A DNA stretch of 57,866 nucleotides, taken from the IMG/VR virus record IMGVR_UViG_3300013014_000035, positions 1 to 57,866 of that record. One strand, given 5' to 3'. The notes below the pieces were generated by a model that was not told where the DNA came from, did no database searches, and was given only the letters and a program-made list of their open reading frames with translations. Numbering within the stretch: position 1 is the stretch's first letter; each line of letters begins with the position of its first letter. Both the position numbers and the translations under genes were made by a program. Of this stretch, positions 1 to 11,813 are shown one piece after another. This DNA is from a virus (taxonomy: Duplodnaviria; Caudoviricetes).

Positions 1-13
1 AATAAATCTCTGG

Positions 14-42
14 TTGACAGCCGTGCCTAAGCTTGATATAAT
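14..42 (+). promoter_or_regulatory. sigma70-type early promoter
   Basis: TTGACA(14-19)-17 nt-TATAAT(37-42), extended -10 TG. Confidence 0.85.
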
Positions 43-70
43 CCAACTGTAGACAAAAGGATACATCATC

Positions 71-295: not shown

Positions 296-317
296 CACAT
301 ATGTAATAAGTTAACCG

Positions 318-346
318 TTGACAGTCACCCTCTAGCCTGATATAAT
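318..346 (+). promoter_or_regulatory. sigma70-type early promoter
   Basis: TTGACA-N17-TATAAT with TG extension. Confidence 0.85.
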
Positions 347-367
347 CCACCATATAAGGAGACAGAC

Positions 368-553
368 ATGACCTCAGCTTACTTTGCCGGCCGCAAGGCC
401 TACCACTATGGATTGCCGACCACGGGTAACCCCCACCGGTACTACACTGCAGAGTATCATGATTGGCGCGATGGTTGGGAAGATGAGCAGTACGAAGAAG
501 ATGAACGCTATGACCGTGATATGGAAATGGCGCTGCATGAGGAGGATTGCTGA
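368..553 (+). CDS. RMF/CrpP-like small protein
   Basis: AYFAGRKAY..G....NPH......DWRDGW resembles the RMF pattern A.xRGYxAG..G...CPY.....WLGGW; AAGGAG RBS. Confidence 0.6.
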   Translation: MTSAYFAGRKAYHYGLPTTGNPHRYYTAEYHDWRDGWEDEQYEEDERYDRDMEMALHEEDC

Positions 554-555
554 TC

Positions 556-765
556 ATGCTCTATGGATTAATTGATGCTGCATACAAAGAAGGATATGCA
601 GCATACCCAGGTAAGGGACCATGTCCTTACTTAACTATTGATAATGATCCGGAACAAGTATCATTGGAAAAAGCTTGGTATGAAGGTTGGGATGCAGCAT
701 ATTCCGACGAGCTAGATCGCTATATGGAAGGCCTCAGTCGACTGAATGCCGATGCCAAAGATTAA
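556..765 (+). CDS. RMF/CrpP-like small protein
   Basis: AYKEGYAAYPGKGPCPY...AWYEGW; GGAGGA RBS at 541-546 favours ATG 556. Confidence 0.65.
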   Translation: MLYGLIDAAYKEGYAAYPGKGPCPYLTIDNDPEQVSLEKAWYEGWDAAYSDELDRYMEGLSRLNADAKD

Positions 766-835
766 CAACTTGTAATAATTTCCCTATTGACAACGGCCTC
801 TGGCCATGGTATAATCCACTCATAGACAAAGGGAT
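759..835 (+). repeat. 77-bp promoter cassette, exact copy of 1805-1881 (contains promoter 787-815)
   Basis: AGATTAACAACTTGTAATAATTTCCCTATTGACAACGGCCTCTGGCCATGGTATAATCCACTCATAGACAAAGGGAT identical at both sites. Confidence 0.95.
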
Positions 836-842
836 GCATGAC

Positions 843-1226
843 ATGACCGTTACGACCTACACCTATGACGACCAGACCGTTTCCGACCTCCACAAGGATG
901 CCTATGGTACCCGGCCCGGCGCCAGGTTCATGCAGCTTTGGAAAGGTCTGAGCCCGGACGACAAGCAGGGCCTGTGGGAATCCATGTGCATCGAGCTTGA
1001 CCGCAAACAAGAGCGTGAGCGCGAGGGTTATGACTGCGCCTGGAGCTCCTGGATCGATCGGATGTTTGACCTCGCTATAGCGCAGGAAATCTCGGTCGGT
1101 GATGCCATACGTCGGCATGTGAAGGCTGCTGACGTGGGTGGCGACTATGGCTACTACTGCTTCCGTGAAGGCCTGTCCTACGATCGCGAGGCGTATATCA
1201 AGGCGACGGTTGAGTCTCAAGGTTAA
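843..1226 (+). CDS. hypothetical early protein
   Basis: start moved to ATG 843 (MTVTTY) downstream of promoter; motif SDLHKDAYGTRP. Confidence 0.75.
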   Translation: MTVTTYTYDDQTVSDLHKDAYGTRPGARFMQLWKGLSPDDKQGLWESMCIELDRKQEREREGYDCAWSSWIDRMFDLAIAQEISVGDAIRRHVKAADVGGDYGYYCFREGLSYDREAYIKATVESQG

Positions 1227-1247
1227 CACTTTGTAATAATTTCTTGG

Positions 1248-1276
1248 TTGACAACGGCCTCAGGCCATGGTATAAT
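1248..1276 (+). promoter_or_regulatory. sigma70-type early promoter (cassette copy)
   Basis: TTGACAACGGCCTCAGGCCATGGTATAAT. Confidence 0.9.
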
Positions 1277-1301
1277 CATTTTATAAACAGGAGATAGAGA
1301 C

Positions 1302-1529
1302 ATGGAACTTTTGGTTGTTGACTTTGGTGACTCCTACGACCGCTCGGTGGTGGGTGTGGCTCGTGACCTGGCTGAGGCCCGGGTGATGGCTCGAGCCTAT
1401 GTGGCCTCCGTGTGCTGGGAACAGCGCGTGTTGGACGGCCAGTACTTTGCCGTGCAGCGGCATGTGGTTGGTGAGGCTTCCGTCGCGTACGTCCAGGATG
1501 AAGAACTTGACCTGGACGTGGAAGGTTAA
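1302..1529 (+). CDS. hypothetical early protein
   Basis: ORF between promoter cassettes, AGGAG RBS. Confidence 0.7.
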   Translation: MELLVVDFGDSYDRSVVGVARDLAEARVMARAYVASVCWEQRVLDGQYFAVQRHVVGEASVAYVQDEELDLDVEG

Positions 1530-1550
1530 CTCTTTGTAATAAATCTCTGG

Positions 1551-1579
1551 TTGACATTGGCCTCTGGCTATGGTATAAT
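1551..1579 (+). promoter_or_regulatory. sigma70-type early promoter (cassette copy)
   Basis: TTGACATTGGCCTCTGGCTATGGTATAAT. Confidence 0.9.
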
Positions 1580-1604
1580 CACCATATAAGGAAAGGGATA
1601 CCAC

Positions 1605-1811
1605 ATGGCTCGCAAAACCGCTCGTGTCACTCAGGTCTGGACCATTCGGGAGGTTGGCTCCAACGGCTTCCTTGGCACTTATCGGACTTATACGGCTGAT
1701 CAGGCCATCCAGAAGTTCTGGGACGACCAGGCAGCCACTGCCGCTACTTTCCGCCGCTCTCAGCCGATGCGCAAGTTTGCAGTCACGGCCACTGTGGAAC
1801 CGGTAGATTAA
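1605..1811 (+). CDS. hypothetical early protein
   Basis: ORF between cassettes with RBS; stop lies in next cassette. Confidence 0.7.
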   Translation: MARKTARVTQVWTIREVGSNGFLGTYRTYTADQAIQKFWDDQAATAATFRRSQPMRKFAVTATVEPVD

Positions 1812-1881
1812 CAACTTGTAATAATTTCCCTATTGACAACGGCCTCTGGCCATGGTATAATCCACTCATAGACAAAGGGAT
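1805..1881 (+). repeat. 77-bp promoter cassette, exact copy of 759-835 (contains promoter 1833-1861)
   Basis: direct identity seen in sequence. Confidence 0.95.
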
Positions 1882-1885
1882 ACCG

Positions 1886-2272
1886 ATGAAGCTTTATCAC
1901 TCCATCTATCACTATCGTGGTTGCAACCAGCCTCGGACTCCTCGTGAGGTCAAGGATGCTGTCGAACGGGATGAATATGTCAAGATCGCCGTTGTGCAAT
2001 GCCATTCCATGGATGAGGCTTATGCGCTGACTCAGAACATCGATCAGCCATGGACTATGAACCCATGGGTGGAGATGCGACCAGTTCCCGGTCCTTTCAG
2101 GTCGACTATGCCTGGGGATATGATCTCGTGCTGTTACGAGGTTTACATTGTCGGCAATAGTGGATTCGTCTACCTGCCGCACAAAGCCTTCAAAGATCGG
2201 CAACGTGCCCGCCGTGCAAAGGCCATGGCTGAATTCGATCAGTACAACGCTCGCCGCCAAGCGGTAGGTTAA
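1886..2272 (+). CDS. hypothetical early protein
   Basis: ORF behind promoter; motif AYALTQNIDQPW...RSTMPGD. Confidence 0.75.
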   Translation: MKLYHSIYHYRGCNQPRTPREVKDAVERDEYVKIAVVQCHSMDEAYALTQNIDQPWTMNPWVEMRPVPGPFRSTMPGDMISCCYEVYIVGNSGFVYLPHKAFKDRQRARRAKAMAEFDQYNARRQAVG

Positions 2273-2293
2273 CAATTTGTAATAATTTAGGCG

Positions 2294-2322
2294 TTGACAT
2301 CGACGTGTCGGCTTGGTATAAT
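2294..2322 (+). promoter_or_regulatory. sigma70-type early promoter
   Basis: TTGACA-N17-TATAAT, spacer inverted repeat CGAC-GT-GTCG. Confidence 0.85.
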
Positions 2323-2347
2323 CATTTTATAAACAGGAGACATACAG

Positions 2348-2725
2348 ATGCCGAAACGTGAAACTGCCGCTGAACGCGAAGTCCGCTATGCCGAAGAAGC
2401 TCAAGCTGCATTGGCAAAGTTCGAAGCTGAAAAGCCTCTGCGGTTGCTTCGAGTTCTGGCACGTGCTCAAGTGCACGGGATTGCAACATATTTTTCTTAC
2501 GATGATGCAATCGATAATGCTAGCATAAAGATCGTGGGTCATGATTACGAGGTATATCTTGAATCTGATTATTATGGATTGGATGAATATAAATTCAGCA
2601 ATATTGAATATGAGCTGGATGCATTAGACGAGGAGTTGAAGGAAAAGCAACGACTGGCTGAGTTGAAGAAAGTGGCGCTGTCTAAGTTAACTAAGGAAGA
2701 ACAACAACTCTTGGGTCTCGTATAA
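2348..2725 (+). CDS. hypothetical protein, coiled-coil C-terminus
   Basis: AGGAG RBS; ends ALSKLTKEEQQLLGL, a motif common in small phage proteins. Confidence 0.75.
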   Translation: MPKRETAAEREVRYAEEAQAALAKFEAEKPLRLLRVLARAQVHGIATYFSYDDAIDNASIKIVGHDYEVYLESDYYGLDEYKFSNIEYELDALDEELKEKQRLAELKKVALSKLTKEEQQLLGLV

Positions 2726-2735
2726 GGAGATAGCT

Positions 2736-2918
2736 ATGACCAACGTATCCACTATCATCGATCGCCTTCATGCCGCCGCCTGGGCATCAAAGAATGACCG
2801 GGAATCCAATTTCATCTCGGCTCTGGCTAACCGCCTCGAGCATCGGTCGTCCCTGTTCGAGAAGGATCTGACCAAAGTCGAGATTGCCATGATCAGCCGT
2901 TACGCGGGTCTGCAATAA
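2736..2918 (+). CDS. hypothetical protein
   Basis: AAGGAG RBS, 60 aa. Confidence 0.7.
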   Translation: MTNVSTIIDRLHAAAWASKNDRESNFISALANRLEHRSSLFEKDLTKVEIAMISRYAGLQ

Positions 2919-3085
2919 TGGCCCTCTCTGCAGACGTTGATTTCTCGGCTATTCGAATGCCATCTAGTGTTGTGTTCCTGCTGTTCGTGGCTATTATCAC
3001 TACAGGAATTACATTGACAACCATCTTTGGTCCTGCGCAATTGCCTCCAGGTTCAAAGCTCCAATGTGAGGTTGTGCCTCGCTAG
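2918..3085 (+). CDS. small membrane protein (55 aa, not in ORF track)
   Basis: TAATG overlap; MALSADVDFSAIRMPSSVVFLLFVAIITTGITLTTIFGPAQLPPGSKLQCEVVPR with one hydrophobic helix. Confidence 0.6.
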   Translation: MALSADVDFSAIRMPSSVVFLLFVAIITTGITLTTIFGPAQLPPGSKLQCEVVPR

Positions 3086-3110
3086 ATTAACTTTTTTAAT
3101 AATTTAATCG

Positions 3111-3139
3111 TTGACAACGGCCTCTGGCCATGGTATAAT
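3111..3139 (+). promoter_or_regulatory. sigma70-type early promoter (cassette copy)
   Basis: TTGACAACGGCCTCTGGCCATGGTATAAT. Confidence 0.9.
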
Positions 3140-3162
3140 CCACTTCTAAACAGGAGATAAAC

Positions 3163-3603
3163 ATGACCGATTTTGAAAACGAAGTCCTGGCTATGATGTC
3201 CTTCAGAGAGCAGGATCTCCTGCTTCGTGTCTTGGCCTTGTCTTCTTGTCGTGAGGGTGCTATCGTCAGTCTGGTGGCTGGACGACTGCAGGACATGATG
3301 AATAGCGGTCTAATGGATCGCCTCTATCCGGAACTGGTTGATGCAGTCGAAGCGGAAACGGTAGTAGTGAAATCAAAGCCTGTCGAACCTGTGGTTACAC
3401 CTGAAGTGGTTACAACTACCACTTCTATGGAGGTTGGCGATATTGTTATTGCCAATTGGAATATTGCTAACACGCCTGGTCTGAACGGCGATGTTGTAAA
3501 GATCCTCGTATTTGAAGGTGATCAAGTTTGTGTCAAGCATCCGGGTGGTACAATTTCAGTTTTCAATGTAAAGAATCTTCGACCCATTCCAAAGGATTTT
3601 TGA
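3163..3603 (+). CDS. hypothetical protein, possible C-terminal SH3/KOW-like barrel
   Basis: AGGAG RBS; MEVGDIV...VKIL..EGDQVCVK pattern. Confidence 0.65.
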   Translation: MTDFENEVLAMMSFREQDLLLRVLALSSCREGAIVSLVAGRLQDMMNSGLMDRLYPELVDAVEAETVVVKSKPVEPVVTPEVVTTTTSMEVGDIVIANWNIANTPGLNGDVVKILVFEGDQVCVKHPGGTISVFNVKNLRPIPKDF

Positions 3604-3605
3604 TT

Positions 3606-3911
3606 ATGGTAAACCGTGAACGTATGATGTCCCCAAGGCGTATGGAAACTCTTGATCTAGATTATTCGACTCTGAGTAGCGCATTGGAGACAATCCAATG
3701 TCTCATTGACAAGTATGGTCCGGATGCTATGATCTGTGAATATGATGCAGATTATAGTGACAACAAATATTTGGCTGTATCTGTCAAGGTGCCCGAGACG
3801 GATCAGGAAATGGCCAAGCGTATTAGGGAAGAAGAGCGGTGGGAAGCCGACATGACTGCTCGTGATCGTGTAGAGTTTGAACGGCTCAAGGCCAAGTTTG
3901 GAGATAAGTGA
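3606..3911 (+). CDS. hypothetical protein
   Basis: start ATG 3606; C-terminal PETDQEMAKR...FERLKAKFG motif common in phages. Confidence 0.7.
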   Translation: MVNRERMMSPRRMETLDLDYSTLSSALETIQCLIDKYGPDAMICEYDADYSDNKYLAVSVKVPETDQEMAKRIREEERWEADMTARDRVEFERLKAKFGDK

Positions 3912-4135
3912 TTATGACTGCGCTCGAATACGAAGAGGTAATGGCGAATTTTGACTTGTTGATTGTCCATGTACAAAAGCTCCGGACTGATTATAATAAT
4001 GATTATAATAAGCTTCAGGAGAAGTTCCGAACAGCTTGTTGGCTATTACGTGATGCTGCAGATACATTGGCCTGTATGGATGGTGCAAACTATCCACTGA
4101 ATAGTATTATGCAATTCCTAGAGGAGAATAATTAG
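3908..4135 (+). CDS. hypothetical protein
   Basis: coupled ORF, GGAG RBS. Confidence 0.6.
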   Translation: MIMTALEYEEVMANFDLLIVHVQKLRTDYNNDYNKLQEKFRTACWLLRDAADTLACMDGANYPLNSIMQFLEENN

Positions 4136-4380
4136 TGATGACTGATCGAGGAGACACCTACGGCGGTATATTCTGGGTACGTGCGACTGATGGTGGCTGG
4201 CATTCTGCAACCCCGGCCGAATCTTGTGATGAAATCAAGCGGTTGCGTGCCGAGAACATACGGCTACGGGAGTCTCTAACTAACGCTAGCTCTGAAACGT
4301 TTGACACAATTGTACACAACGGAATAGCAATGGAAAATCTACTTAAAATCATTAACGCTGCATTAGAGGTGAAACCATGA
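4135..4380 (+). CDS. hypothetical protein
   Basis: GAGGAG RBS, coupled ORF. Confidence 0.6.
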   Translation: MMTDRGDTYGGIFWVRATDGGWHSATPAESCDEIKRLRAENIRLRESLTNASSETFDTIVHNGIAMENLLKIINAALEVKP

Positions 4381-4631
4381 ATGAATGCAAAGATTGTGAT
4401 CGGATGGACTGCCGTGCACGGGGCTGTATTGCACCTTGCTCTGATTTGGATTACAATAGCGTTTTAAAAGATCGCCTTTATCGGATTTCAGGCATGCCTA
4501 CCCGTACTACCTGGACTAGTGGTCCTATGCCACAGTCCATGGGTTGTATTTGTCCACCTACTAGTGAACAGACGTGTATGAATCCTCTGTGCCCTAGGAA
4601 GCCTATTGGTAAAGCTAATGATGTCACCTGA
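4377..4631 (+). CDS. Cys-rich hypothetical protein
   Basis: CKDCDRMDC..RGC...C and CICPP...C.NPLC; GAGG RBS. Confidence 0.55.
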   Translation: MNECKDCDRMDCRARGCIAPCSDLDYNSVLKDRLYRISGMPTRTTWTSGPMPQSMGCICPPTSEQTCMNPLCPRKPIGKANDVT

Positions 4632-4833
4632 TCCTTATTGGTCTGGTTATGATGACTATAAGCGTGGTCGACATTTCGCGGACAATCCCTATAATTATGA
4701 CACTGACCTGAGTCTTCATCTGATGTGGGGAGAAGGTTATCTGAGTGCATATGAAGATGTCATGAAGAGAATTGAGGCTATTGGCGATCAAGCTCGTGGT
4801 CCTGAACGCCCGCCGCCTTGGCAGAATCCTTAA
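4618..4833 (+). CDS. RMF/CrpP-like small protein
   Basis: PYWSGYDDYKRG.....NPY........WGEGY. Confidence 0.55.
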   Translation: MMSPDPYWSGYDDYKRGRHFADNPYNYDTDLSLHLMWGEGYLSAYEDVMKRIEAIGDQARGPERPPPWQNP

Positions 4834-4875
4834 CATTAGTTAATGGTACATTAACATTTTGTAATAAAATAATTG

Positions 4876-4904
4876 TTGACATTGACCAGGTTTTTTGGTA
4901 TAAT
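4876..4904 (+). promoter_or_regulatory. sigma70-type early promoter
   Basis: TTGACA-N17-TATAAT with TG. Confidence 0.85.
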
Positions 4905-4951
4905 AACCATATAAGGAAGGAAAGGCATAGGGCCTTTCAGGAGACATTGAT

Positions 4952-5410
4952 ATGAACATCATTGAACGACTCGAAGAATTATATGCTCGCGCCAGGGATA
5001 GTGATAGTGTGACAATCCAAGATGCCATCAGGCTGATTGAACTCTATGACGATGCATTGCATACTATTGCTAAAGTGAATCCTAGCGCTAATGCTGCATT
5101 GTTGGATAATGTTGTCCATATGGTAAAAGATACTATTGCACTAGGTCAGCCACAATATTATCGATCTAAGAAGTCTCCTGAAGAAACCGTTGTAGATCTT
5201 AAGAAAATGGCATTTGATCGTAATCGCCATGGTAGCCTCTATGATCGTGGTAGTGCCGACAGTTATTACGAGAGAGAACGGTATCCTCATTGGTATCCGA
5301 ATGGTACTTATAATGGAGACTGTGTTCTTGCTGTAACTGAAGATGAAATTGCCGAATATATGGCTGGATATGATTGGAATGAAGAATTTGGAGACAAAAA
5401 GGGATGGTAA
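4952..5410 (+). CDS. hypothetical protein with RMF-like C-terminal segment
   Basis: AGGAG RBS; LYDRGSADSYY.R...PH...EYMAGY. Confidence 0.7.
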   Translation: MNIIERLEELYARARDSDSVTIQDAIRLIELYDDALHTIAKVNPSANAALLDNVVHMVKDTIALGQPQYYRSKKSPEETVVDLKKMAFDRNRHGSLYDRGSADSYYERERYPHWYPNGTYNGDCVLAVTEDEIAEYMAGYDWNEEFGDKKGW

Positions 5411-5622
5411 CTGCAACCAATGACGCGGCTTCATTCTCTCATAGAGATTTGTATGAGGAAGGTCGCGCCGCATATATTGATCTTGGTACGGCATGGATGC
5501 AGCCTAGGTACTATTTTACGCACGAAGAGTTGCTGGATTGGTGGAATTCTGTATATGAATGGGATGATGCTATGAAAGCGTGGGTTTATACACTAGAAGT
5601 ACAAAAAGCCCTAGAACGTTAA
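5404..5622 (+). CDS. hypothetical protein, weak RMF-like
   Basis: LYEEGRAAY..G....PRY......DWW. Confidence 0.55.
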   Translation: MVTATNDAASFSHRDLYEEGRAAYIDLGTAWMQPRYYFTHEELLDWWNSVYEWDDAMKAWVYTLEVQKALER

Positions 5623-5694
5623 CATAGGTTTATGATATGTTATAGAGATATGATTTACATCATATCAAGAAACCCGGTTTTGTTAACTTAATTG

Positions 5695-5723
5695 TTGACA
5701 GGTGCCGGGTTTTTTGTTATAAT
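5695..5723 (+). promoter_or_regulatory. sigma70-type early promoter overlapping a hairpin, heading paralog array
   Basis: TTGACA-N17-TATAAT; AAACCCGG(5670-5677)/CCGGGTTT(5705-5712) inverted repeat. Confidence 0.85.
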
Positions 5724-5745
5724 AAGACTATAGGAGACACGGAGA

Positions 5746-5931
5746 ATGCGTAATATTACAACTATTCGTTCTGTACCAAATGATACAGCTAATGATCTAG
5801 TGTGGAAAGAAGCGCGCGGGAAAGGTGTCCATTGCGTGATAAACGCTCGGAATGAGTTGGGTTATCAAGTTACAATAGATATCAGAGAACCTATATTGGA
5901 TCAATTTGCAGAAGATTTAGATGATGTCTGA
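5746..5931 (+). CDS. QxxEDL-family miniprotein 1
   Basis: ends IREPILDQFAEDLDDV. Confidence 0.75.
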   Translation: MRNITTIRSVPNDTANDLVWKEARGKGVHCVINARNELGYQVTIDIREPILDQFAEDLDDV

Positions 5932-6109
5932 AGTTACTATGTTGATGATAGATTCAATTCATCATTCACTCGATACGTATCTTGATGCATTATCCGAGGA
6001 AGTACTTGTAGGTGTGACTCTAGGTCCTGTTAGTGATCAAATTGCACTTCAATTACGATATAACCTTCATGATCAGATATATGAGGATCTAGATGTCAAT
6101 TATAAATGA
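5921..6109 (+). CDS. QxxEDL-family miniprotein 2
   Basis: ends LHDQIYEDLDVNYK; overlaps previous stop. Confidence 0.75.
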   Translation: MMSEVTMLMIDSIHHSLDTYLDALSEEVLVGVTLGPVSDQIALQLRYNLHDQIYEDLDVNYK

Positions 6110-6278
6110 AATTAGGCTTCAAGTCAGAATTCAAGCCGGTCATAAGCTCCATGAACCCGAAAGTATTTCTTTAGAGATTTGGGGTGAAGCATATGTTATT
6201 CAGGAAGATGCTGTGCATTTACTTATTATGAATCGTATAATTGCAGATCAGATAGATGAAGATCTAGAAGATGTCTGA
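6093..6278 (+). CDS. QxxEDL-family miniprotein 3
   Basis: ends IADQIDEDLEDV. Confidence 0.75.
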   Translation: MSIINEIRLQVRIQAGHKLHEPESISLEIWGEAYVIQEDAVHLLIMNRIIADQIDEDLEDV

Positions 6279-6462
6279 AACTAAAATTCCAATTTATTAT
6301 GGTCCATATAATAAGGTTCGGAGTCAAATAAGACCTCTAATAGATAGTAATATATGGTATACGATTTATCTTGCGACTCATCATAATATTTTTCAAATTT
6401 CAGATATACAAGTTAGAGAACCAGTTAAAGATCAAATGGAAGAGGATCTAGATCTTGTCTAA
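6271..6462 (+). CDS. QxxEDL-family miniprotein 4
   Basis: ends VREPVKDQMEEDLDLV. Confidence 0.75.
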   Translation: MSETKIPIYYGPYNKVRSQIRPLIDSNIWYTIYLATHHNIFQISDIQVREPVKDQMEEDLDLV

Positions 6463-6649
6463 GAATATACGATATATAATAAAAAGCCAGTGTGCAGAAG
6501 AAGCCTCGGGTAGAACATGGGATACTACAGATGATGGTACCATGCGCCATATAGCATTAAATATACGTATGGATCTGAATGGTCGTATTCATAGACCGGT
6601 AATGGATAATGTGTTTATACAAGTGGATGAGGATTTACGAGATGTCTAG
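6455..6649 (+). CDS. QxxEDL-family miniprotein 5
   Basis: TTG start; ends VFIQVDEDLRDV. Confidence 0.7.
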   Translation: MSKNIRYIIKSQCAEEASGRTWDTTDDGTMRHIALNIRMDLNGRIHRPVMDNVFIQVDEDLRDV

Positions 6650-6836
6650 AATTGTTGAACGGATACACACTGATGTATCAAATGCCGTCTGGAAACAAAC
6701 GGCAATGTCGATGATTGGCTTGGAAGTTCGTAATAAATTTTGGCTTGAACATTTTGTTGTAATTGAAGTTGAAGCTAGAATTGAAGATTATATGGTCAGT
6801 CAAGTTTATGAGGATTTGGAAAATGATGAATACTGA
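6642..6836 (+). CDS. QxxEDL-family miniprotein 6
   Basis: start ATG 6642 (MSRIVERI); ends MVSQVYEDLENDEY. Confidence 0.75.
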   Translation: MSRIVERIHTDVSNAVWKQTAMSMIGLEVRNKFWLEHFVVIEVEARIEDYMVSQVYEDLENDEY

Positions 6837-7053
6837 TGCTATTTGGTTAACATTAGGTGAATGTGGTTGGTATCATAAGACTTTTAATATAGTATATTCT
6901 TATACTGATGTTTTAACGCTCAGAGATATTCTACAGCAAGAAGCAAGAGAAGAAGGTGTTATGCTGAGATGTGAAATTTATACTGGTGGTATGTTTACAT
7001 CCGATACTAATATCACGATGTATGTTTGGTTGGTTCATAAACCATGGTTGTGA
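6826..7053 (+). CDS. hypothetical protein (paralog of 71-295) inserted in array
   Basis: MNTDAIWLTLGECG...LQQEAREEGVMLR. Confidence 0.7.
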   Translation: MNTDAIWLTLGECGWYHKTFNIVYSYTDVLTLRDILQQEAREEGVMLRCEIYTGGMFTSDTNITMYVWLVHKPWL

Positions 7054-7208
7054 ATAAAATTCAAAACATGCGACATATTGACATAACTGAAATTTCTCCT
7101 TATGTACAATTTGCAGTCGGTGATAAATTGTTGCACGAATTTTTGCTTGTTTTGGTCCCATTAAAAGTACAAATAAAAGAAGATCTAAAAAATGTACAAA
7201 ATGACTGA
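7044..7208 (+). CDS. QxxEDL-family miniprotein 7 (54 aa, not in ORF track)
   Basis: MVVNKIQNMRH...LKVQIKEDLKNVQND. Confidence 0.65.
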   Translation: MVVNKIQNMRHIDITEISPYVQFAVGDKLLHEFLLVLVPLKVQIKEDLKNVQND

Positions 7209-7389
7209 AACAGTGCGTAATATTATGGCGGATGATGTATCAGATGCTATTTGGCATAAAACTCATAATATGTTTGCTGTTGGTATTCGAAGTTATGTGA
7301 TTCGTCATGTTGAACCAGCATTCATAGATGACATTTATACGTTACTCGATGAACAAATCAAGGAAAATCTAAATTATGAAGATTATTGA
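7192..7389 (+). CDS. QxxEDL-family miniprotein 8
   Basis: ends LLDEQIKENLNYEDY; DDVSDAIWHKT resembles DVSNAVWKQT of member 6. Confidence 0.75.
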   Translation: MYKMTETVRNIMADDVSDAIWHKTHNMFAVGIRSYVIRHVEPAFIDDIYTLLDEQIKENLNYEDY

Positions 7390-7555
7390 TGTACTTTTGA
7401 GTCATGTATTGTATGATTCTATGCGCGAATCACATAAATCTGTTAGAAAAAACGTTCGATTTATGACATATGCTAGGTTGCAAATGCCAATTTATGATAG
7501 ATTGTCCAATATAAGCTTAGAAAATCAGATTGCAGAAGATATTAACGAAAATTAA
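7376..7555 (+). CDS. QxxEDL-family miniprotein 9 (59 aa, not in ORF track)
   Basis: MKIIDVLLSH...LENQIAEDINEN. Confidence 0.7.
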   Translation: MKIIDVLLSHVLYDSMRESHKSVRKNVRFMTYARLQMPIYDRLSNISLENQIAEDINEN

Positions 7556-7566
7556 CAAATTTTTTG

Positions 7567-7595
7567 TTGACATTGTGATCAAAATTTGATATAAT
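7567..7595 (+). promoter_or_regulatory. sigma70-type early promoter
   Basis: TTGACA-N17-TATAAT with TG. Confidence 0.85.
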
Positions 7596-7621
7596 CATCT
7601 TATAGACCAAGGAGATATACT

Positions 7622-7957
7622 ATGGATGTTCTATCAGCTTATGTGACACGTATGCGTGATAAAGCAACAGAAAATCAATTGAGTCATGATCAGGTTCCGC
7701 CTCTGGTTTGCCGTGATGGGCTCAAATTGTCAGTTCAAGCGAGTTCTTCTCACTATTGTGAGCCAAAAAATCACGTTGGTCCATGGAAATCGATGGAACT
7801 TGGCTTTCCTAGTAAACCGGTCCCTGAATTGCGACAATGGCGTGAGGATCTAGGAGATGATTCTCCGGATGAAGAATGTGTTTTTGGATGGGTTCCCGTT
7901 GATATGCTATTGAAAACCATTGAAAAGCATGGTGGGTGTGATCAACTCGAAGAGTAG
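7622..7957 (+). CDS. conserved phage hypothetical protein
   Basis: CRDGLKLSVQASSSHYCEP...ELGFPS...VFGWVP...IEKHGG; AAGGAG RBS. Confidence 0.8.
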   Translation: MDVLSAYVTRMRDKATENQLSHDQVPPLVCRDGLKLSVQASSSHYCEPKNHVGPWKSMELGFPSKPVPELRQWREDLGDDSPDEECVFGWVPVDMLLKTIEKHGGCDQLEE

Positions 7958-7990
7958 CCATAAAATTAACATTTTGTAATGATTTTTTTG

Positions 7991-8019
7991 TTGACACAAC
8001 CATCAAAGTTTGTTATAAT
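7991..8019 (+). promoter_or_regulatory. sigma70-type early promoter
   Basis: TTGACA-N17-TATAAT with TG. Confidence 0.85.
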
Positions 8020-8044
8020 AACTTTATTAACATAGGATTGTGAT

Positions 8045-8455
8045 ATGCAACTCCCCACCGAAGGTTCAGTCGTAGAGATTATATTGGACAATGCTGCAGC
8101 ACGTTATGCTATGGCTCCGTGTTCAGTGCATAGGGCACAACCTACATTGACTCTTCGTGGGGTTGTTGTACCCACTCCTAAGTGGATGACTTCTGTTGCC
8201 GATCTTACTATTCTAAATAGTGAGACCAAAGGCTTTAATTATATCCCTAGACACAAGATCTTGACTATTGGTGGTGTTACGGTAAAACAACCGAAGGTCA
8301 CTGCAGACAAGGTCTTAAATATGACTTCATCTAAAACTGGCGAAGTCTATACTGTGCGACAAGATGGTCGTACTAAACGTTGGTCGTGCACTTGTATTGG
8401 ATTTCAATTCCATAAGAAGTGCCGACATGTAACAAAAGCTATGGAGAATAAATAA
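8045..8455 (+). CDS. SWIM-type zinc finger protein
   Basis: YTV......WSCTCIGFQFHKKCRH (CxC...CxH). Confidence 0.75.
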   Translation: MQLPTEGSVVEIILDNAAARYAMAPCSVHRAQPTLTLRGVVVPTPKWMTSVADLTILNSETKGFNYIPRHKILTIGGVTVKQPKVTADKVLNMTSSKTGEVYTVRQDGRTKRWSCTCIGFQFHKKCRHVTKAMENK

Positions 8456-8703
8456 TGGCTATTACAGATACCGAAACATTCCGTGCTCTTGTCACGCAAG
8501 GACCAACTGTTATTATGGTCGAAAAGACACATATGTTGGCCTTGCTAGATGAACGAGATGAACTTCGTGATGCCCTTGTTAATATGTTAATGGTTCTTGA
8601 CTGTGCACACCAAGCAAGCGGATTCATCTCGACTGGTCATATGACAGACACAGAGAATGCTCTCACTAAAACAAAAAACATTTTGTTCAAAAATAACCCT
8701 TGA
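8455..8703 (+). CDS. hypothetical protein
   Basis: GGAG RBS, coupled ORF. Confidence 0.65.
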   Translation: MAITDTETFRALVTQGPTVIMVEKTHMLALLDERDELRDALVNMLMVLDCAHQASGFISTGHMTDTENALTKTKNILFKNNP

Positions 8704-8727
8704 CTTTTTACTAAAACCATATATAAT
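8700..8727 (+). promoter_or_regulatory. near-consensus sigma70 promoter
   Basis: TTGACT-N16-TATAAT. Confidence 0.6.
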
Positions 8728-8774
8728 AACATAACCAGGGCAATGTCGCCCATTTATACCAAGGAGACTATATT

Positions 8775-9137
8775 ATGAAGATTATGCGTAACATGGCTGC
8801 TCAGGGTGACTTCATTATCCTGCGTATTCAGAATATCCCCGAGGGTGTTGTTCCTGTTGCTCCTGAGAATGGCAAGGTAATTGTCGCTCACAGTGAAACT
8901 GGGCACAATCACGTGATGGAAGCAACTCGAGTCGAGGCATTCGAAGTTCCTGCTGATAAGTCCAACTCTCAGAATGTTGACTTGTACAAGATGTTCCTTC
9001 TTGTCAAGGAAGACACTCAGATTGACCATCTTCGGTCTTTCGATACTCACGAGGCTATTATGGTACCGCCCGGTATGTATGAGGTTCGCCGTCAACGCGA
9101 ATATACCGCCGAAGGTTTCCGTAAGGCGGCTGACTGA
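8775..9137 (+). CDS. conserved His-rich hypothetical protein, usual upstream partner of DUF6745 proteins
   Basis: QGD...AHSETGHNH...H.R.FDTH.....PG.Y..RRQREY; AAGGAG RBS. Confidence 0.75.
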   Translation: MKIMRNMAAQGDFIILRIQNIPEGVVPVAPENGKVIVAHSETGHNHVMEATRVEAFEVPADKSNSQNVDLYKMFLLVKEDTQIDHLRSFDTHEAIMVPPGMYEVRRQREYTAEGFRKAAD

Positions 9138-9196
9138 TCTTTGATCTAGGTTTTATTTTTAGAAGCTTTCCACTTATATAATGTAAAGGTGATAAT

Positions 9197-10063
9197 GTGA
9201 TTACTAGTTTGAATGAAGACCAACTGGCGCAAATTCCCGTGTATCGGGACCGCTGGTTGGAAATCGGTCTTCGTACTGAAGTTCTTGACTTTGCTGCAGC
9301 TAAGACTGCTCTTGCAAAGTGCTACACCTCCCGTGATCTTGAATCACCTTCTAATGTTTATTATGCTACTGGACCTATGGATGCCTACAAGATCTATAAG
9401 TCAGTAAAGCCTGGCGGTACTTCTACCGAATTCATGAACTCTATGATCTATGGCGCTCATGATAGTTCTTGGTTGAGTTTCTATGCTTACTTTAAGGAAG
9501 TCTGTGGTCTGGATCTGGAGATTGTCCAGCCACTGATTGAATATGCCCAAGTTGCTTGCTGGACTTATGTCGACAAGGACTTTGCTATTATTCAAGAGTT
9601 CCCGATGTATATCCGATTCGATGATCAGAATCGTCTGCATTGTGAAGATGGTCCTGCCATTGAATATCAAGATGGTACCATGGTGTTTGCATGGCATGGT
9701 GTTCGTCTGAGCCGTGACAAGTGGTTCTGGATCACCAATAAGCAAGAGTTGTCTGCTAAGGCAGCCCTGAAGGAAGACAACTTGGAACTCCGCCGAGTTG
9801 CCTGTGAAATTCTTGGTTGGGTCCATATTCTTAAGGAACTGAAGTCTAAGGTTATTGATCAGGATGAAGATCCGCAGATTGGTACTCTTCTGCAGGTGAA
9901 TATTCCTGATATCGGTAAGGAACAGTTCCTGCGTGTTGTTTGTGGTACTGGTCGTGAGTTTGCTATTCCGGTGCCGCCTACTGTCAAGACCGCGTTGGAA
10001 GCAAATGCTTGGACCTATGGTGTTGATCCCGAGGTGCTTCGAGACTTGGAATTCCGTACTTAG
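9197..10063 (+). CDS. DUF6745-like protein
   Basis: YRDRWLEIGL..., YGAHD..WL.FY.YF, RLHCEDGPAIEYQDG...AWHGV, ENxExRR-like EDNLELRR, C.TGREF.I.VPP....ALEA.AWTYG. Confidence 0.75.
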   Translation: MITSLNEDQLAQIPVYRDRWLEIGLRTEVLDFAAAKTALAKCYTSRDLESPSNVYYATGPMDAYKIYKSVKPGGTSTEFMNSMIYGAHDSSWLSFYAYFKEVCGLDLEIVQPLIEYAQVACWTYVDKDFAIIQEFPMYIRFDDQNRLHCEDGPAIEYQDGTMVFAWHGVRLSRDKWFWITNKQELSAKAALKEDNLELRRVACEILGWVHILKELKSKVIDQDEDPQIGTLLQVNIPDIGKEQFLRVVCGTGREFAIPVPPTVKTALEANAWTYGVDPEVLRDLEFRT

Positions 10064-10090
10064 TTTATAAAACATATTGAGTTTAACTCG

Positions 10091-10124
10091 GAGGGTGGTA
10101 TTAAGGTTATCACCCTCTTTTTTT
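10091..10124 (+). terminator. intrinsic terminator
   Basis: GAGGGTGGTA-ttaaggt-TATCACCCTC followed by T-run. Confidence 0.8.
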
Positions 10125-10137
10125 GTGCATTTTTTTG

Positions 10138-10166
10138 TTGACAGTGATATATGGTTGTGTTATAAT
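10138..10166 (+). promoter_or_regulatory. sigma70-type early promoter
   Basis: TTGACA-N17-TATAAT with TG. Confidence 0.85.
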
Positions 10167-10207
10167 CAGTAATGACAAAATGTGAATAATATAAAAGGAA
10201 TATAAAA

Positions 10208-10405
10208 ATGTATAGTAAAATGTATAGTCAAACTATAGTTGATATAATGGATGATGTTGAAGATGCTATTAAGACAAAGGTTAGGAAACAAGTAGCATAT
10301 CATAACTTTATGGAAGTTTTTGAACTTAGACATATTGGTCAGATACTCGATTGCGAGTTCCATATTAGAGAACAATTTATGGATGATGTAGAAAATGAAA
10401 GTTAA
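10208..10405 (+). CDS. QxxEDL-family miniprotein 10
   Basis: IMDDVEDAI...; ends IREQFMDDVENES. Confidence 0.7.
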   Translation: MYSKMYSQTIVDIMDDVEDAIKTKVRKQVAYHNFMEVFELRHIGQILDCEFHIREQFMDDVENES

Positions 10406-10559
10406 AGATATTATCTTTCCACTATCGACATGGAATATTAGAATTATTGCTGACAATCAAATCAAAAGTCAAGTTTACGACCATAATAAAGTATTATATG
10501 ATCTTATGTTGTATGTTCCACATATTCATGAACAACTCAGAGACGATTTAGATGATTAG
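10395..10559 (+). CDS. QxxEDL-family miniprotein 11 (54 aa, not in ORF track)
   Basis: MKVKDIIFP...IHEQLRDDLDD. Confidence 0.7.
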   Translation: MKVKDIIFPLSTWNIRIIADNQIKSQVYDHNKVLYDLMLYVPHIHEQLRDDLDD

Positions 10560-10740
10560 TTTATTCGTCTATCATCTTTATTCAAGAAAAGAATGTGAAT
10601 CTAAAACTAATAACGAAGTAAAATATCTTATTTCTGAAAAAGTAAGAAACGGACTTCTTGATCTGGAAATGTATTCCAAAATAAGACGTGCAGCTTGGAT
10701 GGAAGTTAACCATCAATTCATAGACGATCTCAAAGATTAA
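10552..10740 (+). CDS. QxxEDL-family miniprotein 12
   Basis: ends VNHQFIDDLKD. Confidence 0.7.
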   Translation: MISLFVYHLYSRKECESKTNNEVKYLISEKVRNGLLDLEMYSKIRRAAWMEVNHQFIDDLKD

Positions 10741-10781
10741 AAAAAGTTAACAAAAAAGTTTTGAAAACCGTAATTTTTTGG

Positions 10782-10810
10782 TTGACATTACCCCCAAAGT
10801 TTGTTATAAT
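10782..10810 (+). promoter_or_regulatory. sigma70-type early promoter
   Basis: TTGACA-N17-TATAAT with TG. Confidence 0.85.
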
Positions 10811-10859
10811 AACTTTATTAACAGGGCATATCGCCCATCATATGAAAGGTTTTTTTATA

Positions 10860-11813
10860 ATGGCTCATAATATCGAAATGATCGACGGTAAGGCTCAGAT
10901 GGCATATGCCGGTGATGTGCCTTGGCACGGTCTGGGTACTCGGGTACCTGGTGATCTTACCCCCGAACAGATGCTCGATGCAGCTGGTCTGAATTGGGAG
11001 GTCAATAAGGTCCCTGCCTTTGCTAAGGTTGCCGGCAAGAATGTTAATGTCGGTTGGTCTGCTCTGGTTCGCTCTAGCGATAGCAAGATCGTTGATGTGG
11101 TTTCGGATGACTGGAATCCGGTGCAGAACTCTGAGGCTTTCGAGTTCTTTAACGACTTCATTGCTGAGGGTGACATGGAAATGCACACCGCTGGTAGTCT
11201 CTGTGACGGCAAGATTGTCTGGGCTCTGGCTAAGGTGAAGGATTCGTTCGAACTCTTCGGTGGTGATAAGGTTGACTCTTACCTTCACTTCACCAACTTC
11301 CATAAGTATGGCTGCAGCACCGACGTTCGGTTCACTCCGATCCGTGTGGTGTGTAACAACACCTTGACTTTGTCGCTCAATACCAAGGTCGAGCGTATGG
11401 TCAAGATCAGCCACCGTCGTGAGTTTAACGGTGACCAGACTAAGCTGATGCTTGGTGTTGCAGCCGAAAAGCTTGCGCAGTACAAGGAAATGGCTCAGTT
11501 CCTCGGTTCTAAGCGCTACAGTGATGAAAACGTGGTTGAATACTTCAAGCGTGTGTTCCCTGCCTCGGAAAATGCCAAGCGCTCTGAAATTACCAAGAAT
11601 GCTCGTACTGCTCTTGGTATCCTTGAGACTCAGCCTGGTGCTGAATATGCTCCTGGTTCTTGGTGGCAGGCGTTTAACGCCACTACCTATATGACCGATC
11701 ACCTTATCGGTCGCTCTACTGATACCCGGATGACTTCGGCTTGGTATGGTGCCAATAAGAATCTTAAGGTTCGTGCTCTTGAGACCGCGATCGAAATGGC
11801 GGAAGCGGCCTAA
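10860..11813 (+). CDS. DUF932 domain protein (phage/plasmid-like TIGR03299 family)
   Basis: start ATG 10860; MAH.....MAY.G.VPWHGLG, PVQNSEAFEFF, TAGSL..G, TPIRVVCNNTL. Confidence 0.85.
   Translation: MAHNIEMIDGKAQMAYAGDVPWHGLGTRVPGDLTPEQMLDAAGLNWEVNKVPAFAKVAGKNVNVGWSALVRSSDSKIVDVVSDDWNPVQNSEAFEFFNDFIAEGDMEMHTAGSLCDGKIVWALAKVKDSFELFGGDKVDSYLHFTNFHKYGCSTDVRFTPIRVVCNNTLTLSLNTKVERMVKISHRREFNGDQTKLMLGVAAEKLAQYKEMAQFLGSKRYSDENVVEYFKRVFPASENAKRSEITKNARTALGILETQPGAEYAPGSWWQAFNATTYMTDHLIGRSTDTRMTSAWYGANKNLKVRALETAIEMAEAA

Follow-up and report, generated by a model that had tools for sequence, protein, structure and literature searches.

Two early gene arrays of a freshwater T4-like phage encode putative degenerate x-x-Q-V repeat mini-proteins tied to DUF6745

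The twelve small ORFs found in two arrays of the window (the whole 57,866-nucleotide stretch of viral DNA analysed here) are, as judged from profile comparisons, a degenerate branch of a large, undescribed family of x-x-Q-V repeat mini-proteins of about 60 residues that is tied to the domain DUF6745. It is probable that they form degenerate repeat helices, free counterparts of the repeat insert present in other DUF6745 proteins, and that they dock on the repeat-less DUF6745 protein encoded by the same phage. The virus is a freshwater T4-like myovirus, in which T4-like gp6 and gp32 were found.

Gene content and evolution of the two arrays

The first-pass annotation described twelve AT-rich ORFs of 54-65 aa and quoted their tails. 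All twelve are present, all on the + strand, the tails are all correct, and the lengths (54-65 aa) and GC contents (0.28-0.39) bear out the description. Both arrays exist as well, but the first is not continuous, since it is broken by an unrelated 76-aa ORF. The features are:

5667..5723, + strand: composite of stem-loop, U-run and early promoter (-35 at 5695, -10 ending at 5723), resembling a promoter-early stem-loop (PeSL)
5746..5931, + strand: m01, 61 aa, tail DQFAEDLDDV; cluster of 20 sequences, motif invariant across orthologues
5921..6109, + strand: m02, 62 aa, tail DQIYEDLDVNYK; cluster of 25 sequences; period-4 p=0.004
6093..6278, + strand: m03, 61 aa, tail DQIDEDLEDV; variable cassette
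6271..6462, + strand: m04, 63 aa, tail DQMEEDLDLV; variable cassette; period-4 p=0.012
6455..6649, + strand: m05, 64 aa, TTG start, tail IQVDEDLRDV; period-4 z=7.9
6642..6836, + strand: m06, 64 aa, tail SQVYEDLENDEY; cluster of 7 sequences; the ORF listing has a longer start at 6609
6823..7053, + strand: inserted ORF, 76 aa, unrelated; splits array 1, coupled on both sides
7044..7208, + strand: m07, 54 aa, tail VQIKEDLKNVQND; cluster of 3 sequences; orthologues in related loci L003, L005 and L006
7192..7389, + strand: m08, 65 aa, tail EQIKENLNYEDY; no other member is as regular or as conserved
7376..7555, + strand: m09, 59 aa, tail NQIAEDINEN; ends array 1 without a coupled gene downstream; cluster of 5
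9197..10063, + strand: DUF6745 (PF20530) protein, 288 aa, repeat-less, between the arrays; predicted docking partner of the mini-proteins
10090..10166, + strand: terminator hairpin (10090-10118), then early promoter (10138-10166), ahead of array 2
10208..10405, + strand: m10, 65 aa, tail EQFMDDVENES; 30 sequences
10395..10559, + strand: m11, 54 aa, tail EQLRDDLDD; 17 sequences
10552..10740, + strand: m12, 62 aa, tail HQFIDDLKD; ends array 2; variable cassette

The inserted ORF lacks the tail motif and is not matched by the family HMM. It is a paralogue of the ORF at 71-295, and positions 2049-2249 of L003 match both. As had been proposed, each array has one consensus early promoter (5695-5723 and 10138-10166), identical to the sigma-70 consensus in 12/12 positions and with an extended -10 TG. 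The region 5640-5725 folds with -33.6 kcal/mol (z -7.7), enclosing the -35 box in a stem, and the region 10075-10170 folds with z -3.8.

Orthologues indicate that the twelve ORFs are genuine early genes that evolve fast. An HMM of the twelve, as the first-pass annotation had suggested building, matched 132 proteins among 219 candidates, with the strict tail motif in 105 of the 120 matches listed. The members form separate orthologue clusters in lake metagenomes; for m04 no orthologue was found in the related loci compared. The dN/dS ratio is below 1 in ten of the eleven members with a measurable orthologue (medians 0.15-0.69, lowest in m08 at 0.15), and the exception is m02 (median 1.14, with low dS). 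Orthologues also exist for m07, m09 and m11, the three ORFs that the first-pass annotation gave as missing from the ORF track, with medians of 0.41, 0.28 and 0.30. Family medians thus span 0.15-1.14, against 0.03-0.29 in neighbouring genes, which together with the members' own clusters agrees with the earlier description of an expanded, diversifying early family.

The tail motif and the gene junctions

The strict motif Q[IFVML].[ED][DN][LVI] was searched in a six-frame translation of the whole contig. It gave 14 matches, twelve of which are the array ORFs, each with the motif 2-6 residues ahead of the stop. The remaining two lie on the - strand at 48851 and 48689, 12-15 residues from a stop, and near a stop codon the motif has no further instance in the 57.9 kb. 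The bacterial sliding-clamp motif (consensus QL[SD]LF or QLxLxL) was considered and rejected, since it needs a hydrophobic residue at position 4, where the tail has E or D in 12/12 members.

Counted from the first base of the Q codon, the following gene starts 19 nt downstream at three of the ten internal junctions and 22 nt downstream at the other seven; the overlaps measure 8-17 nt. In the window and eight loci together, 58 of 59 junctions are in the +1 frame. The tail codons serve twice, once for the protein motif and once for a purine-rich stretch together with the start of the gene that follows and overlaps them. Because they hold both this stretch and the overlapping +1 start, the array genes are probably translationally coupled, as first proposed; we infer this from the start at Q+19 or Q+22 at 10/10 junctions, while a canonical SD core stands upstream of only 29 of the 59 coupled starts.

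This arrangement raises the question whether the tail is a by-product of the junction, namely an RBS stretch, an overlapping start and a recombination patch combined, at the end of ORFs that are otherwise unrelated or that are selfish cassettes, their products sharing no protein function. The E-D codons lie 5-8 nt ahead of the next start, that start falls in the codons just past the motif and close to the stop at every internal junction, indel breakpoints occur in the tail, body similarity is weak and m02 evolves with dN/dS near 1. Against this, the invariant Q and the NTN codons go beyond any SD requirement: at the hydrophobic positions -3, +1 and +5 the middle codon base alone is conserved. 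No coupled gene follows m09 and m12, yet in their orthologues the codons of the motif change synonymously and the motif itself is retained. A Q-phi-x-E ending is likewise present in distant phages whose junctions are built differently (ATGAATAG overlap). The SD core at only 29 junctions, the match of tail-less profiles to repeat proteins and the ten members with dN/dS below 1 also speak against a by-product, which we regard as very unlikely. The residues after the motif vary among m09 orthologues, and the last motif position is degenerate among those of m10. The suspicion that the tail is only an RBS artefact holds in part: some of its conservation derives from the start codon region of the following gene, which overlaps it. 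The tail is nevertheless under selection at the protein level and not shaped by an RBS alone, as the NTN codons and the retention of the motif in the terminal m09 and m12 indicate.

Relation to the DUF6745 repeat

The bodies of the mini-proteins were described as variable. They are strongly divergent, but they are not arbitrary, because seven of the twelve show a hydrophobic period of 4.0 residues at p<=0.02. Among 18 neighbouring small ORFs none has a period-4 z above 1 (MWU p=0.003). In m08 a hydrophobic residue recurs at each fourth position in 14 of 16 units (z=10.1); the period is not seen in m03, m06, m07, m11 and m12. The repeat can be connected to that of much longer proteins. On 136 repeat-bearing proteins the HMM of the twelve alone reaches a median score of 29 bits and a maximum of 67, with decoy maxima of 4.7 bits for shuffled and 21 bits for reversed sequences. 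Once the tails are removed, the median falls to 21.5 bits, and the decoy maxima are then 6-9. The matched repeats are tandem x-x-Q-V, found even with the tail removed. In the close relatives L002 and L003 an extra array encodes overt (xxQV)n mini-proteins, which share the tail ...QL[EK][ED]DL and are coupled in the same way.

Similarity among the bodies themselves is more limited. Of 91 pairs of body profiles, only 9 score as high as the best reversed control. A leave-one-out body HMM found nothing for m02, m07, m09 and m12, and HHalign of bodies against distant overt mini-proteins gave a probability of 60% over 11 columns when pooled and of at most 18% for single orthologue groups. For several members body homology is weak.

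The protein at 9197-10063 matches DUF6745, a C-terminal domain of roughly 200 aa, with 98.1 bits (Pfam gathering cut-off 27). All seven related loci that reach it have it immediately ahead of m10, with 94-99% identity, and among 50,697 phage records only 11 gave a match to it. Among the 150 matches listed in a representative search, 136 are long, and 126 of these are homologues of the window DUF6745 protein with an internal repeat. Such an insert, of about 4-55 units between the N- and C-domains, occurs in many bacterial and some phage DUF6745 proteins, which also have xxKV, xxEV and xSSL units. Like this insert, the mini-proteins have an x-x-Q-V period in which position 1 is W, R, G or E; their profiles match it with and without the tail, and the DUF6745 gene adjoins their arrays. 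They differ in being free-standing, about 60 aa long, strongly degenerate and closed by an acidic E-D-L cap; the DUF6745 domain is absent from them, and their likeness is limited to the repeat insert of the homologues. The repeat segment itself is undescribed in the literature, as a full-text search for DUF6745 and for repeat strings found no paper.

Repeat mini-proteins next to DUF6745 were defined as proteins of 35-135 aa with a tandem four-residue repeat, encoded within 5 kb of a repeat-less DUF6745 gene. Free mini-genes were then counted in 80 viral DUF6745 loci, where alternative-frame ORFs may raise the counts. At least one free mini-gene lies within 5 kb in 62 of 75 repeat-less loci against one of five repeat-bearing ones (Fisher p=0.0065), where the repeat-bearing class comprises only these five and the loci are related metagenome contigs. 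Counted per cluster at 80% identity (44 clusters), the corresponding figures are 33, 6, 1 and 4 (p=0.0068). The nearest mini-gene is within 300 nt of the DUF6745 gene in 47 of 63 loci, and in L022 as many as 21 coupled mini-genes surround it. Control sequence of 139.5 kb gave one HMM match and four regex matches. No mini-gene was found within 5 kb in 13 of the 75 repeat-less loci, and Microcystis phage Ma-LMM01 has a repeat-less DUF6745 gene and no mini-genes. In the window, size and neighbourhood agree with the repeat mini-proteins in 12/12 members and a significant period 4 in 7/12. The first-pass annotation recognised no named family. The ORFs do not stand unconnected: the profiles, the overt mini-proteins of L002 and L003 and the census tie them to the DUF6745 repeat.

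AlphaFold2 predicts m08 alone as a single helix (residues 2-59, pLDDT 81.1). For m01 it gives a beta-alpha-beta-beta-alpha fold of low confidence (pLDDT 58.7) in place of a single helix, so that a confident common fold did not emerge. Both models have a helical tail, as the postulated constant C-terminal helix requires. A complex of DUF6745 with m08, the one member modelled, with our own alignments as input, reached an ipSAE of 0.84 (runs 0.83-0.86) against 0.01 for the best of three controls, these being unrelated natural proteins and not other amphipathic helices. The ipSAE mark is reached by 58 of 80 solved complexes and by 2 of 110 mismatched pairs. The runs have at least 96% of contacts in common, with a partner pLDDT of at least 83, and the lowest-error contacts include L51, L52, Q55 and I56 of m08, that is, the invariant Q of the motif and its flanking hydrophobic residues. 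No PDB relative was found for either chain, which makes it unlikely that the score reflects a solved complex memorised by the predictor; the partner profile gave only insignificant PDB matches (an ABC substrate-binding protein, 0.046; MbnC, E=0.064, 15.9 bits). The idea of a constant handle on a variable body fits this model, in which the tail of m08 docks on DUF6745.

Two other readings of the helices have to be weighed. In the first, the proteins are host-takeover or anti-defence adaptors or decoys, as proposed originally; each body would bind a different host protein, the common tail would bind a host hub or merely cap the helix, and adjacency to DUF6745 would reflect shared early regulation. 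It would agree with the consensus sigma-70 promoters that precede these early genes and with their hyperplastic surroundings, with protein evolution that is fast relative to the neighbours, with copy numbers that vary among phages while flanking genes stay 92-99% identical, and with a modelled DUF6745 interface that is not specially conserved (0.65 against 0.67 elsewhere, p=0.83). However, the complementary fused and split pattern with DUF6745 and the complex model with near-zero controls indicate a phage partner, and database searches give nothing: PADLOC for the neighbouring genes, Pfam for m10-m12 (at least 120 relatives are listed without a precomputed Pfam domain), and PHROGs for all twelve (no match better than E=0.03 for nine members and the inserted ORF, none for m10-m12). 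We consider host targets unlikely; what evidence there is for a partner concerns only the DUF6745 protein of the phage itself and no host hub. In the second reading the helices assemble among themselves into homo- or hetero-oligomeric bundles or filaments, in fixed ratios set by coupling and independently of DUF6745. A lone 58-residue amphipathic helix needs a partner, the hydrophobic stripe spans the full helix length in the family alignment, and translationally coupled paralogues are typical of complex subunits. Self-assembly leaves the fused and split DUF6745 pattern unexplained, and its probability is low.

Cassette turnover and comparison with known systems

The array content was compared among related phages, as had been suggested at the outset, and cassettes are variably absent with breakpoints in the tails. 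Both m03 and m12 are absent from L001, L002 and L004, the m12 breakpoint lying within the tail. In L006 the body of m03 is fused to the tail of m04, and in L001 and L002 the m11 body bears an m12-type tail, with the crossover in AGACGAT. Contigs of other runs join 6079 to 6439 and 10540 to 10722, with 13 and 8 letters shared. Contigs from an RNA library cover parts of the arrays, which is not proof of transcription.

Three known systems resemble the arrays in part. Multi-copy precursor-peptide arrays served by one partner protein are known from prochlorosin-type RiPP clusters and from fused or split borosins. The arrays likewise consist of numerous small genes in tandem that combine a constant recognition end with a variable remainder and adjoin one conserved protein, and fused and split forms both exist. 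In contrast, the PDB profile search found no modifying-enzyme fold for the DUF6745 partner, and a fixed modified residue is hard to reconcile with repeat position 3, which varies among Q, K, E, S and A. The internal-protein (IP) loci of T-even phages are tandem, highly variable genes with a short common terminal targeting peptide, which is N-terminal and cleaved in the head. Both systems are small hyperplastic tandem loci that place a constant short terminal peptide on variable bodies, but the array motif is C-terminal, the promoters are early and nothing observed pointed to a link with the virion. PMC2839356 mentions IP loci.

In T4-type hyperplastic regions, PeSLs shuffle ORFans, according to Arbiol et al. 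2010 (PMC2839356) and Comeau et al. 2014 (PMC4122927). The likeness lies in a T4-like phage with perfect sigma-70 early promoters, and in small ORFan genes gained or lost by recombination at short common sequences. The combination that marks a PeSL, a sigma-70 consensus early promoter with an attached stem-loop terminator in such a region, is present: of six 12/12 promoters in total, two have a strong stem-loop or terminator and the other four have none. The arrays differ in that the mapped breakpoints fall in the coding tails and gene junctions and not within the promoter cassette, and in that the genes are paralogues overlapping in a fixed +1 register.

Phages with a repeat-less DUF6745 protein usually carry free mini-genes beside its gene. 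Under the preferred reading, docking on DUF6745, each mini-protein would be an amphipathic helix that binds DUF6745 in trans, with the conserved tail as its docking handle. The short common tail DNA is at the same time the site of the unequal recombination by which entire cassettes are gained or lost in frame, and the arrays would supply the phage with a panel of interchangeable, diversifying helices.

Mini-genes of a T4-like phage

The window, the whole of a 57,866-nt contig, carries genes for a T4-type baseplate wedge protein gp6, for gp32 and for tail proteins. At about 36% identity, its gp6 resembles the homologues in Sinorhizobium phiM12-type phages, Caulobacter Cr30, cyanophages and Pelagibacter HTVC008M, and a DUF932 protein is 57% identical to its counterpart in the Methylophilales phage Melnitz. 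In a near-identity DNA search the array region had no match among cultured phages, and near-identical DNA was seen in lake and freshwater metagenome runs of 18 studies. On these grounds we read the window as part of what is probably a freshwater T4-like myovirus. At its left end (1-4000) small ORFs are dense and GC content is 0.46-0.51, compared with 0.30-0.37 for the structural region; this end appears to be a hyperplastic region of distinct composition.

Features of the early region (window coordinates)
4876: sigma-70 promoter, 12/12 consensus, extended -10 TG
5695: sigma-70 promoter, 12/12 consensus, extended -10 TG
5746-7555: array 1, mini-protein ORFs m01-m09
7567: sigma-70 promoter, 12/12 consensus, extended -10 TG
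7991: sigma-70 promoter, 12/12 consensus, extended -10 TG
9197-10063 (+): 288-aa DUF6745 (PF20530) protein
10138: sigma-70 promoter, 12/12 consensus, extended -10 TG
10208-10740: array 2, mini-protein ORFs m10-m12
10782: sigma-70 promoter, 12/12 consensus, extended -10 TG

The twelve ORFs are as first described in number, length (54-65 aa), low GC content (0.28-0.39) and C-terminal tail, Q[IFVML].[ED][DN][LVI]; m05 starts with TTG. Array 1 does hold nine of them, but it is interrupted by an unrelated 76-aa ORF (6823-7053). Six-frame translation of the window gives 14 occurrences of the strict motif, 12 of which end these ORFs, 2-6 residues from the stop; the remaining two are on the opposite strand and non-terminal, and a family HMM run over the whole contig found no additional member. 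The interrupting ORF (starting MMNTDAIW) is a paralogue of ORF 71-295 (MNTDNIW...), and positions 2049-2249 of the related locus L003 match both, at 31% and 51%, respectively; the two appear to belong to another family of small early proteins. On the minus strand at 48689 and 48851, two near-identical antisense stretches (...LPPNNL..*QM[IT]EDL...) about 160 nt apart fall within ORF 47105-50323 (1072 aa) and suggest an internal direct repeat there.

A profile of the twelve picks 132 small proteins out of 219 candidates, none of them named and some on contigs of up to 155 kb, and the strict motif is found in 105 of the 120 matches listed. Each window member has its own orthologue cluster among these relatives, and no link at E<1e-5 crosses from one cluster to another. 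In comparisons with eight related IMG/VR loci, 10 of the 11 measurable members have a median dN/dS of 0.15-0.69 and m02, where dS is low, one of 1.14; neighbouring genes give 0.03-0.29. Identity among related loci is 92-99% for neighbouring genes and 53-97% for the mini-proteins. Judged by these ratios, the mini-ORFs are coding and constrained, yet much faster-evolving than their neighbours. Contigs from a run labelled RNA-Seq (X24, a relative 85-95% alike) cover 5793-6079, 7247-8029 and 10481-10800; they are not counted as expression because DNA can occur in such libraries.

The first-pass annotation assigned each array its own consensus early promoter, and this is borne out: both are among six perfect promoters lying within 6 kb (4.8-10.9 kb), each of which heads a short operon. 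The array 1 promoter is situated within a strong stem-loop that includes a run of U (z -7.7) and that of array 2 downstream of a terminator hairpin (z -3.8), while the other four have no significant stem-loop. Rfam matched no family in 4500-11500, and Tandem Repeats Finder detected no long DNA repeat in the arrays. A SWIM zinc finger (Pfam 20.7 bits, cut-off 19.6) is located at the C-terminus of a 136-aa early protein encoded at 8045-8455; the protein is 91-95% conserved across all related loci.

Constraint on the tail and turnover of cassettes

At all ten internal junctions the next start lies 19 or 22 nt past the first base of the Q codon, and the overlap of 8-17 nt puts the next gene in the +1 frame each time; all cassettes have a length of 3n+1. 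The +1 frame recurs at 58 of 59 coupled junctions in the window and eight loci. Because the next gene starts, overlapping, at Q+19 or Q+22, the E-D codons (GAR GAT) come to lie at the Shine-Dalgarno position. Four observations indicate that this geometry does not account for the tail by itself. A canonical Shine-Dalgarno core is present at only 29 of the 59 junctions. The codon for Q never varies, and at -3, +1 and +5 only the middle base of the codon, T, is kept, a signature of selection for hydrophobic residues. The last genes of both arrays, m09 and m12, have no coupled successor; their orthologues retain the motif through synonymous changes and vary in the residues beyond it. The motif is more conserved than the body, i.e. 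the remainder of the protein, in six of nine orthologue groups and less so in m10, m12 and m02. From this combination of core frequency, codon pattern, terminal-gene retention and relative conservation we conclude that the tail is under joint protein and junction constraint, and we regard a pure junction artefact as very improbable.

Three known functions were considered for the tail or the proteins. A sliding-clamp motif was rejected since tail position 4 is acidic. Mimicry of the gp32 acidic tail was also discarded: the phage gp32 ends in ...DDDDGEDLEFFKRLAS and has only E-D-L-E in common with the tail, too short to count. DNA mimicry was rejected as the members are not uniformly acidic (pI 4.1-6.7, net charge 0 to -9).

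Array content, proposed earlier as a point of comparison among related phages, does vary among close relatives. The genes m03 and m04 are absent from loci L001, L002 and L004, as is m12, and new tail-bearing members appear in other loci. The breakpoints fall in the tail: L006 joins the m03 body to the m04 tail, and L002 and L001 cross over within AGACGAT from the m11 body into a tail of m12 type. Two further joins, 6079 to 6439 and 10540 to 10722, are seen in contigs of other studies and share 13 and 8 letters, respectively. This turnover resembles the shuffling of ORFans by promoter-early stem-loop (PeSL) cassettes in T4-type phages, as reported (PMC2839356, PMC4122927), but differs from that account in that the recombination patch of the mini-gene arrays is coding.

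Bodies and the four-residue repeat

Similarity among the twelve bodies alone is weak; in leave-one-out HMM searches six rank 29-83 among 2400 shuffles and four give nothing. Profile-profile scores of the bodies exceed reversed controls overall (Wilcoxon p=7e-5), but only 9 of 91 pairs reach the best control. An exhaustive search, with a profile that included three overt-repeat sequences besides the window members, returned 260 matches at E<=1e-3. Among 146 newly listed matches 136 are long, and 126 of these are homologous to the 288-aa DUF6745 protein of the window. What is matched is a stretch inside these proteins, lying between their N-domain and DUF6745 domain, in which four-residue units (WNQV, RDQV, GNQV etc., up to about 55 units; variants xxKV, xxEV and xSSL) follow one another in tandem; the window protein is without it. 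In P0122-P0267, proteins from the profile search, and at 5347-6624 of locus L011, repeat position 1 alternates mainly between W, R, G and E, and positions 3-4 are fixed per protein as QV, KV, EV or SL depending on the homologue.

The link to these repeats is independent of the three overt-repeat sequences. With an HMM built from just the twelve, the median score of the repeat proteins is 29 bits (decoy maxima 4.7 and 21), or 21.5 bits with the tails removed (decoy maxima 6-9); this HMM also matches the large ORF in 8 of the 10 bacterial loci that were found independently. A hydrophobic period of 4.0 is significant in 7 of 12 members against 0 of 18 neighbouring ORFs. In close relatives there is another array, of overt (xxQV)n mini-proteins, whose QL[EK][ED]DL end and coupling are like those of the window arrays; it would fall past the left end of the window contig. 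Member m08 can itself be read in units, TETV RNIM ADDV SDAI WHKT ... DEQI KENL. HHalign is more cautious, with 85% for the whole profile and 60% for pooled bodies, over 11-12 columns, and single groups not exceeding 18%. These comparisons suggest, with good confidence, that the family as a whole descends in common from repeat mini-proteins; for m02, m07, m11 and m12 individually this is less sure. PADLOC and NCBIfam returned only sub-threshold low-complexity matches to the repeats (e.g. GvpQ, 34-41 bits, cut-off 100), a literature search for 'tetrapeptide repeat' with phage or cyanobacteria gave nothing relevant among the matches listed, and the nearest protein-atlas clusters of m08 are unnamed viral proteins (0.89-0.90).

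Association with DUF6745 and a possible two-part module

The repeat-less DUF6745 gene is directly upstream of m10 in all seven related loci that reach it. In L022, a distant phage contig with a 53% identical DUF6745 protein, the gene is flanked by 21 coupled mini-genes that start MNSVK.QV, contain overt repeats and end ..DQI[DN]E or ..WDETK. At 10617-10862 of this contig the last mini-gene of a run is coupled, via the same ATGAATAG junction as between mini-genes, to a glutaredoxin/NrdH-like ORF (CPWC motif) whose first residues, MNSMK, copy the mini-gene N-terminus.

Free mini-genes within 5 kb of viral DUF6745 genes
DUF6745 form and counting unit; with; without
Repeat-less, 75 of 80 loci; 62; 13
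Internal-repeat, 5 of 80 loci; 1; 4
Repeat-less, clusters at 80% identity; 33; 6
Internal-repeat, clusters at 80% identity; 1; 4

The two forms differ (Fisher p=0.0065 for 80 loci, p=0.0068 for 44 clusters at 80% identity) in a census where the repeat-bearing class is small (5 loci), contigs are mutually related and alternative-frame ORFs may inflate counts. The nearest mini-gene is at most 300 nt away in 47 of 63 loci, and in 139.5 kb of control DNA the mini-gene detectors gave 1 and 4 matches. Distant loci contain 227 Q-type mini-genes (median 64 aa) with lineage-specific acidic caps. The spread covers 199 viral loci and 813 repeat-less DUF6745 proteins at E<=1e-10, and MAGs from six or more bacterial phyla contain repeat-bearing forms. 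Ma-LMM01 is a counter-example, with a repeat-less DUF6745 gene and no mini-genes. Since a Flavobacteriaceae MAG contig (L021) has two free xxQV mini-ORFs, 2530-2718 (-) and 4067-4267 (+), beside a DUF6745 match, free mini-genes may also exist in bacterial or prophage contexts.

No literature on DUF6745 was found. The window protein matches a PHROG of unknown function and no PADLOC defence model, and in the protein atlas nothing outside its own family exceeds 0.77. Host-directed adaptors, which the first-pass annotation had offered as a reading of this diversified early family, have to be weighed against the DUF6745 association, and we consider them unlikely.

AlphaFold2 modelled m08 (family alignment) as one helix over residues 2-59 (pLDDT 81.1, pTM 0.36) and m01 (its own orthologues) as a low-confidence beta-alpha-beta-beta-alpha fold (pLDDT 58.7). 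The predicted tail is helical in both, in agreement with the constant C-terminal helix proposed earlier, but the two models do not support a confident common fold. A complex of DUF6745 (61-row alignment) with m08 as the only member modelled (72-row alignment) reached an ipSAE of 0.84 (runs 0.83, 0.84, 0.86); the best of three controls, all unrelated natural proteins, gave 0.01. Among solved complexes 58 of 80 attain this mark, and among mismatched pairs 2 of 110, counts that apply only roughly here as custom alignments were used. The runs agree in at least 96% of contacts, and partner pLDDT is 83 or more. The modelled m08 helix runs along both DUF6745 domains, and the lowest-error contacts include L51, L52, Q55 and I56 of m08 with DUF6745 residues 155, 161-163 and 170. 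DUF6745 residues at the modelled interface are no more conserved than the rest. Sequence and profile searches of the PDB with DUF6745 and two alignments (A2, A7) gave nothing significant, and neither chain has a solved sequence relative. The model supports the predicted m08-DUF6745 binding but does not show it. We give little weight to self-assembly of the mini-proteins independent of DUF6745.

In view of the above, we favour, with somewhat better than even confidence, a split repeat-plus-DUF6745 module with dual-use tails. The data show the split form, the dual use of the tails and their part in cassette turnover; that the helices load in trans onto DUF6745 via the tail and diversify its surface or specificity is inferred. 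A broader proposal, which we advance tentatively and with slightly less than even confidence, is that DUF6745 and the repeat helices constitute an undescribed two-part module of one hub and many helices. In the bacterial form the helix array would be built into the DUF6745 protein. Many T4-like and other phages would instead have it split into 1 to >20 separately encoded, translationally coupled and fast-diversifying helices that load through their conserved end onto the single hub, and in-frame recombination at the handle-coding junction would tune cassette number.

The design is compact, in that one stretch of 20-30 nt has three uses: it encodes the protein handle, carries the signals and overlapping start of the next gene, and is the patch at which recombination inserts or removes entire genes in frame. 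Such a design would extend the picture of PeSL-mediated accessory-gene shuffling in T4-like phages. A partner is predicted for DUF6745 for the first time, with a defined interface open to mutagenesis, and a set of ORFan early genes would become a testable, widespread two-component module.
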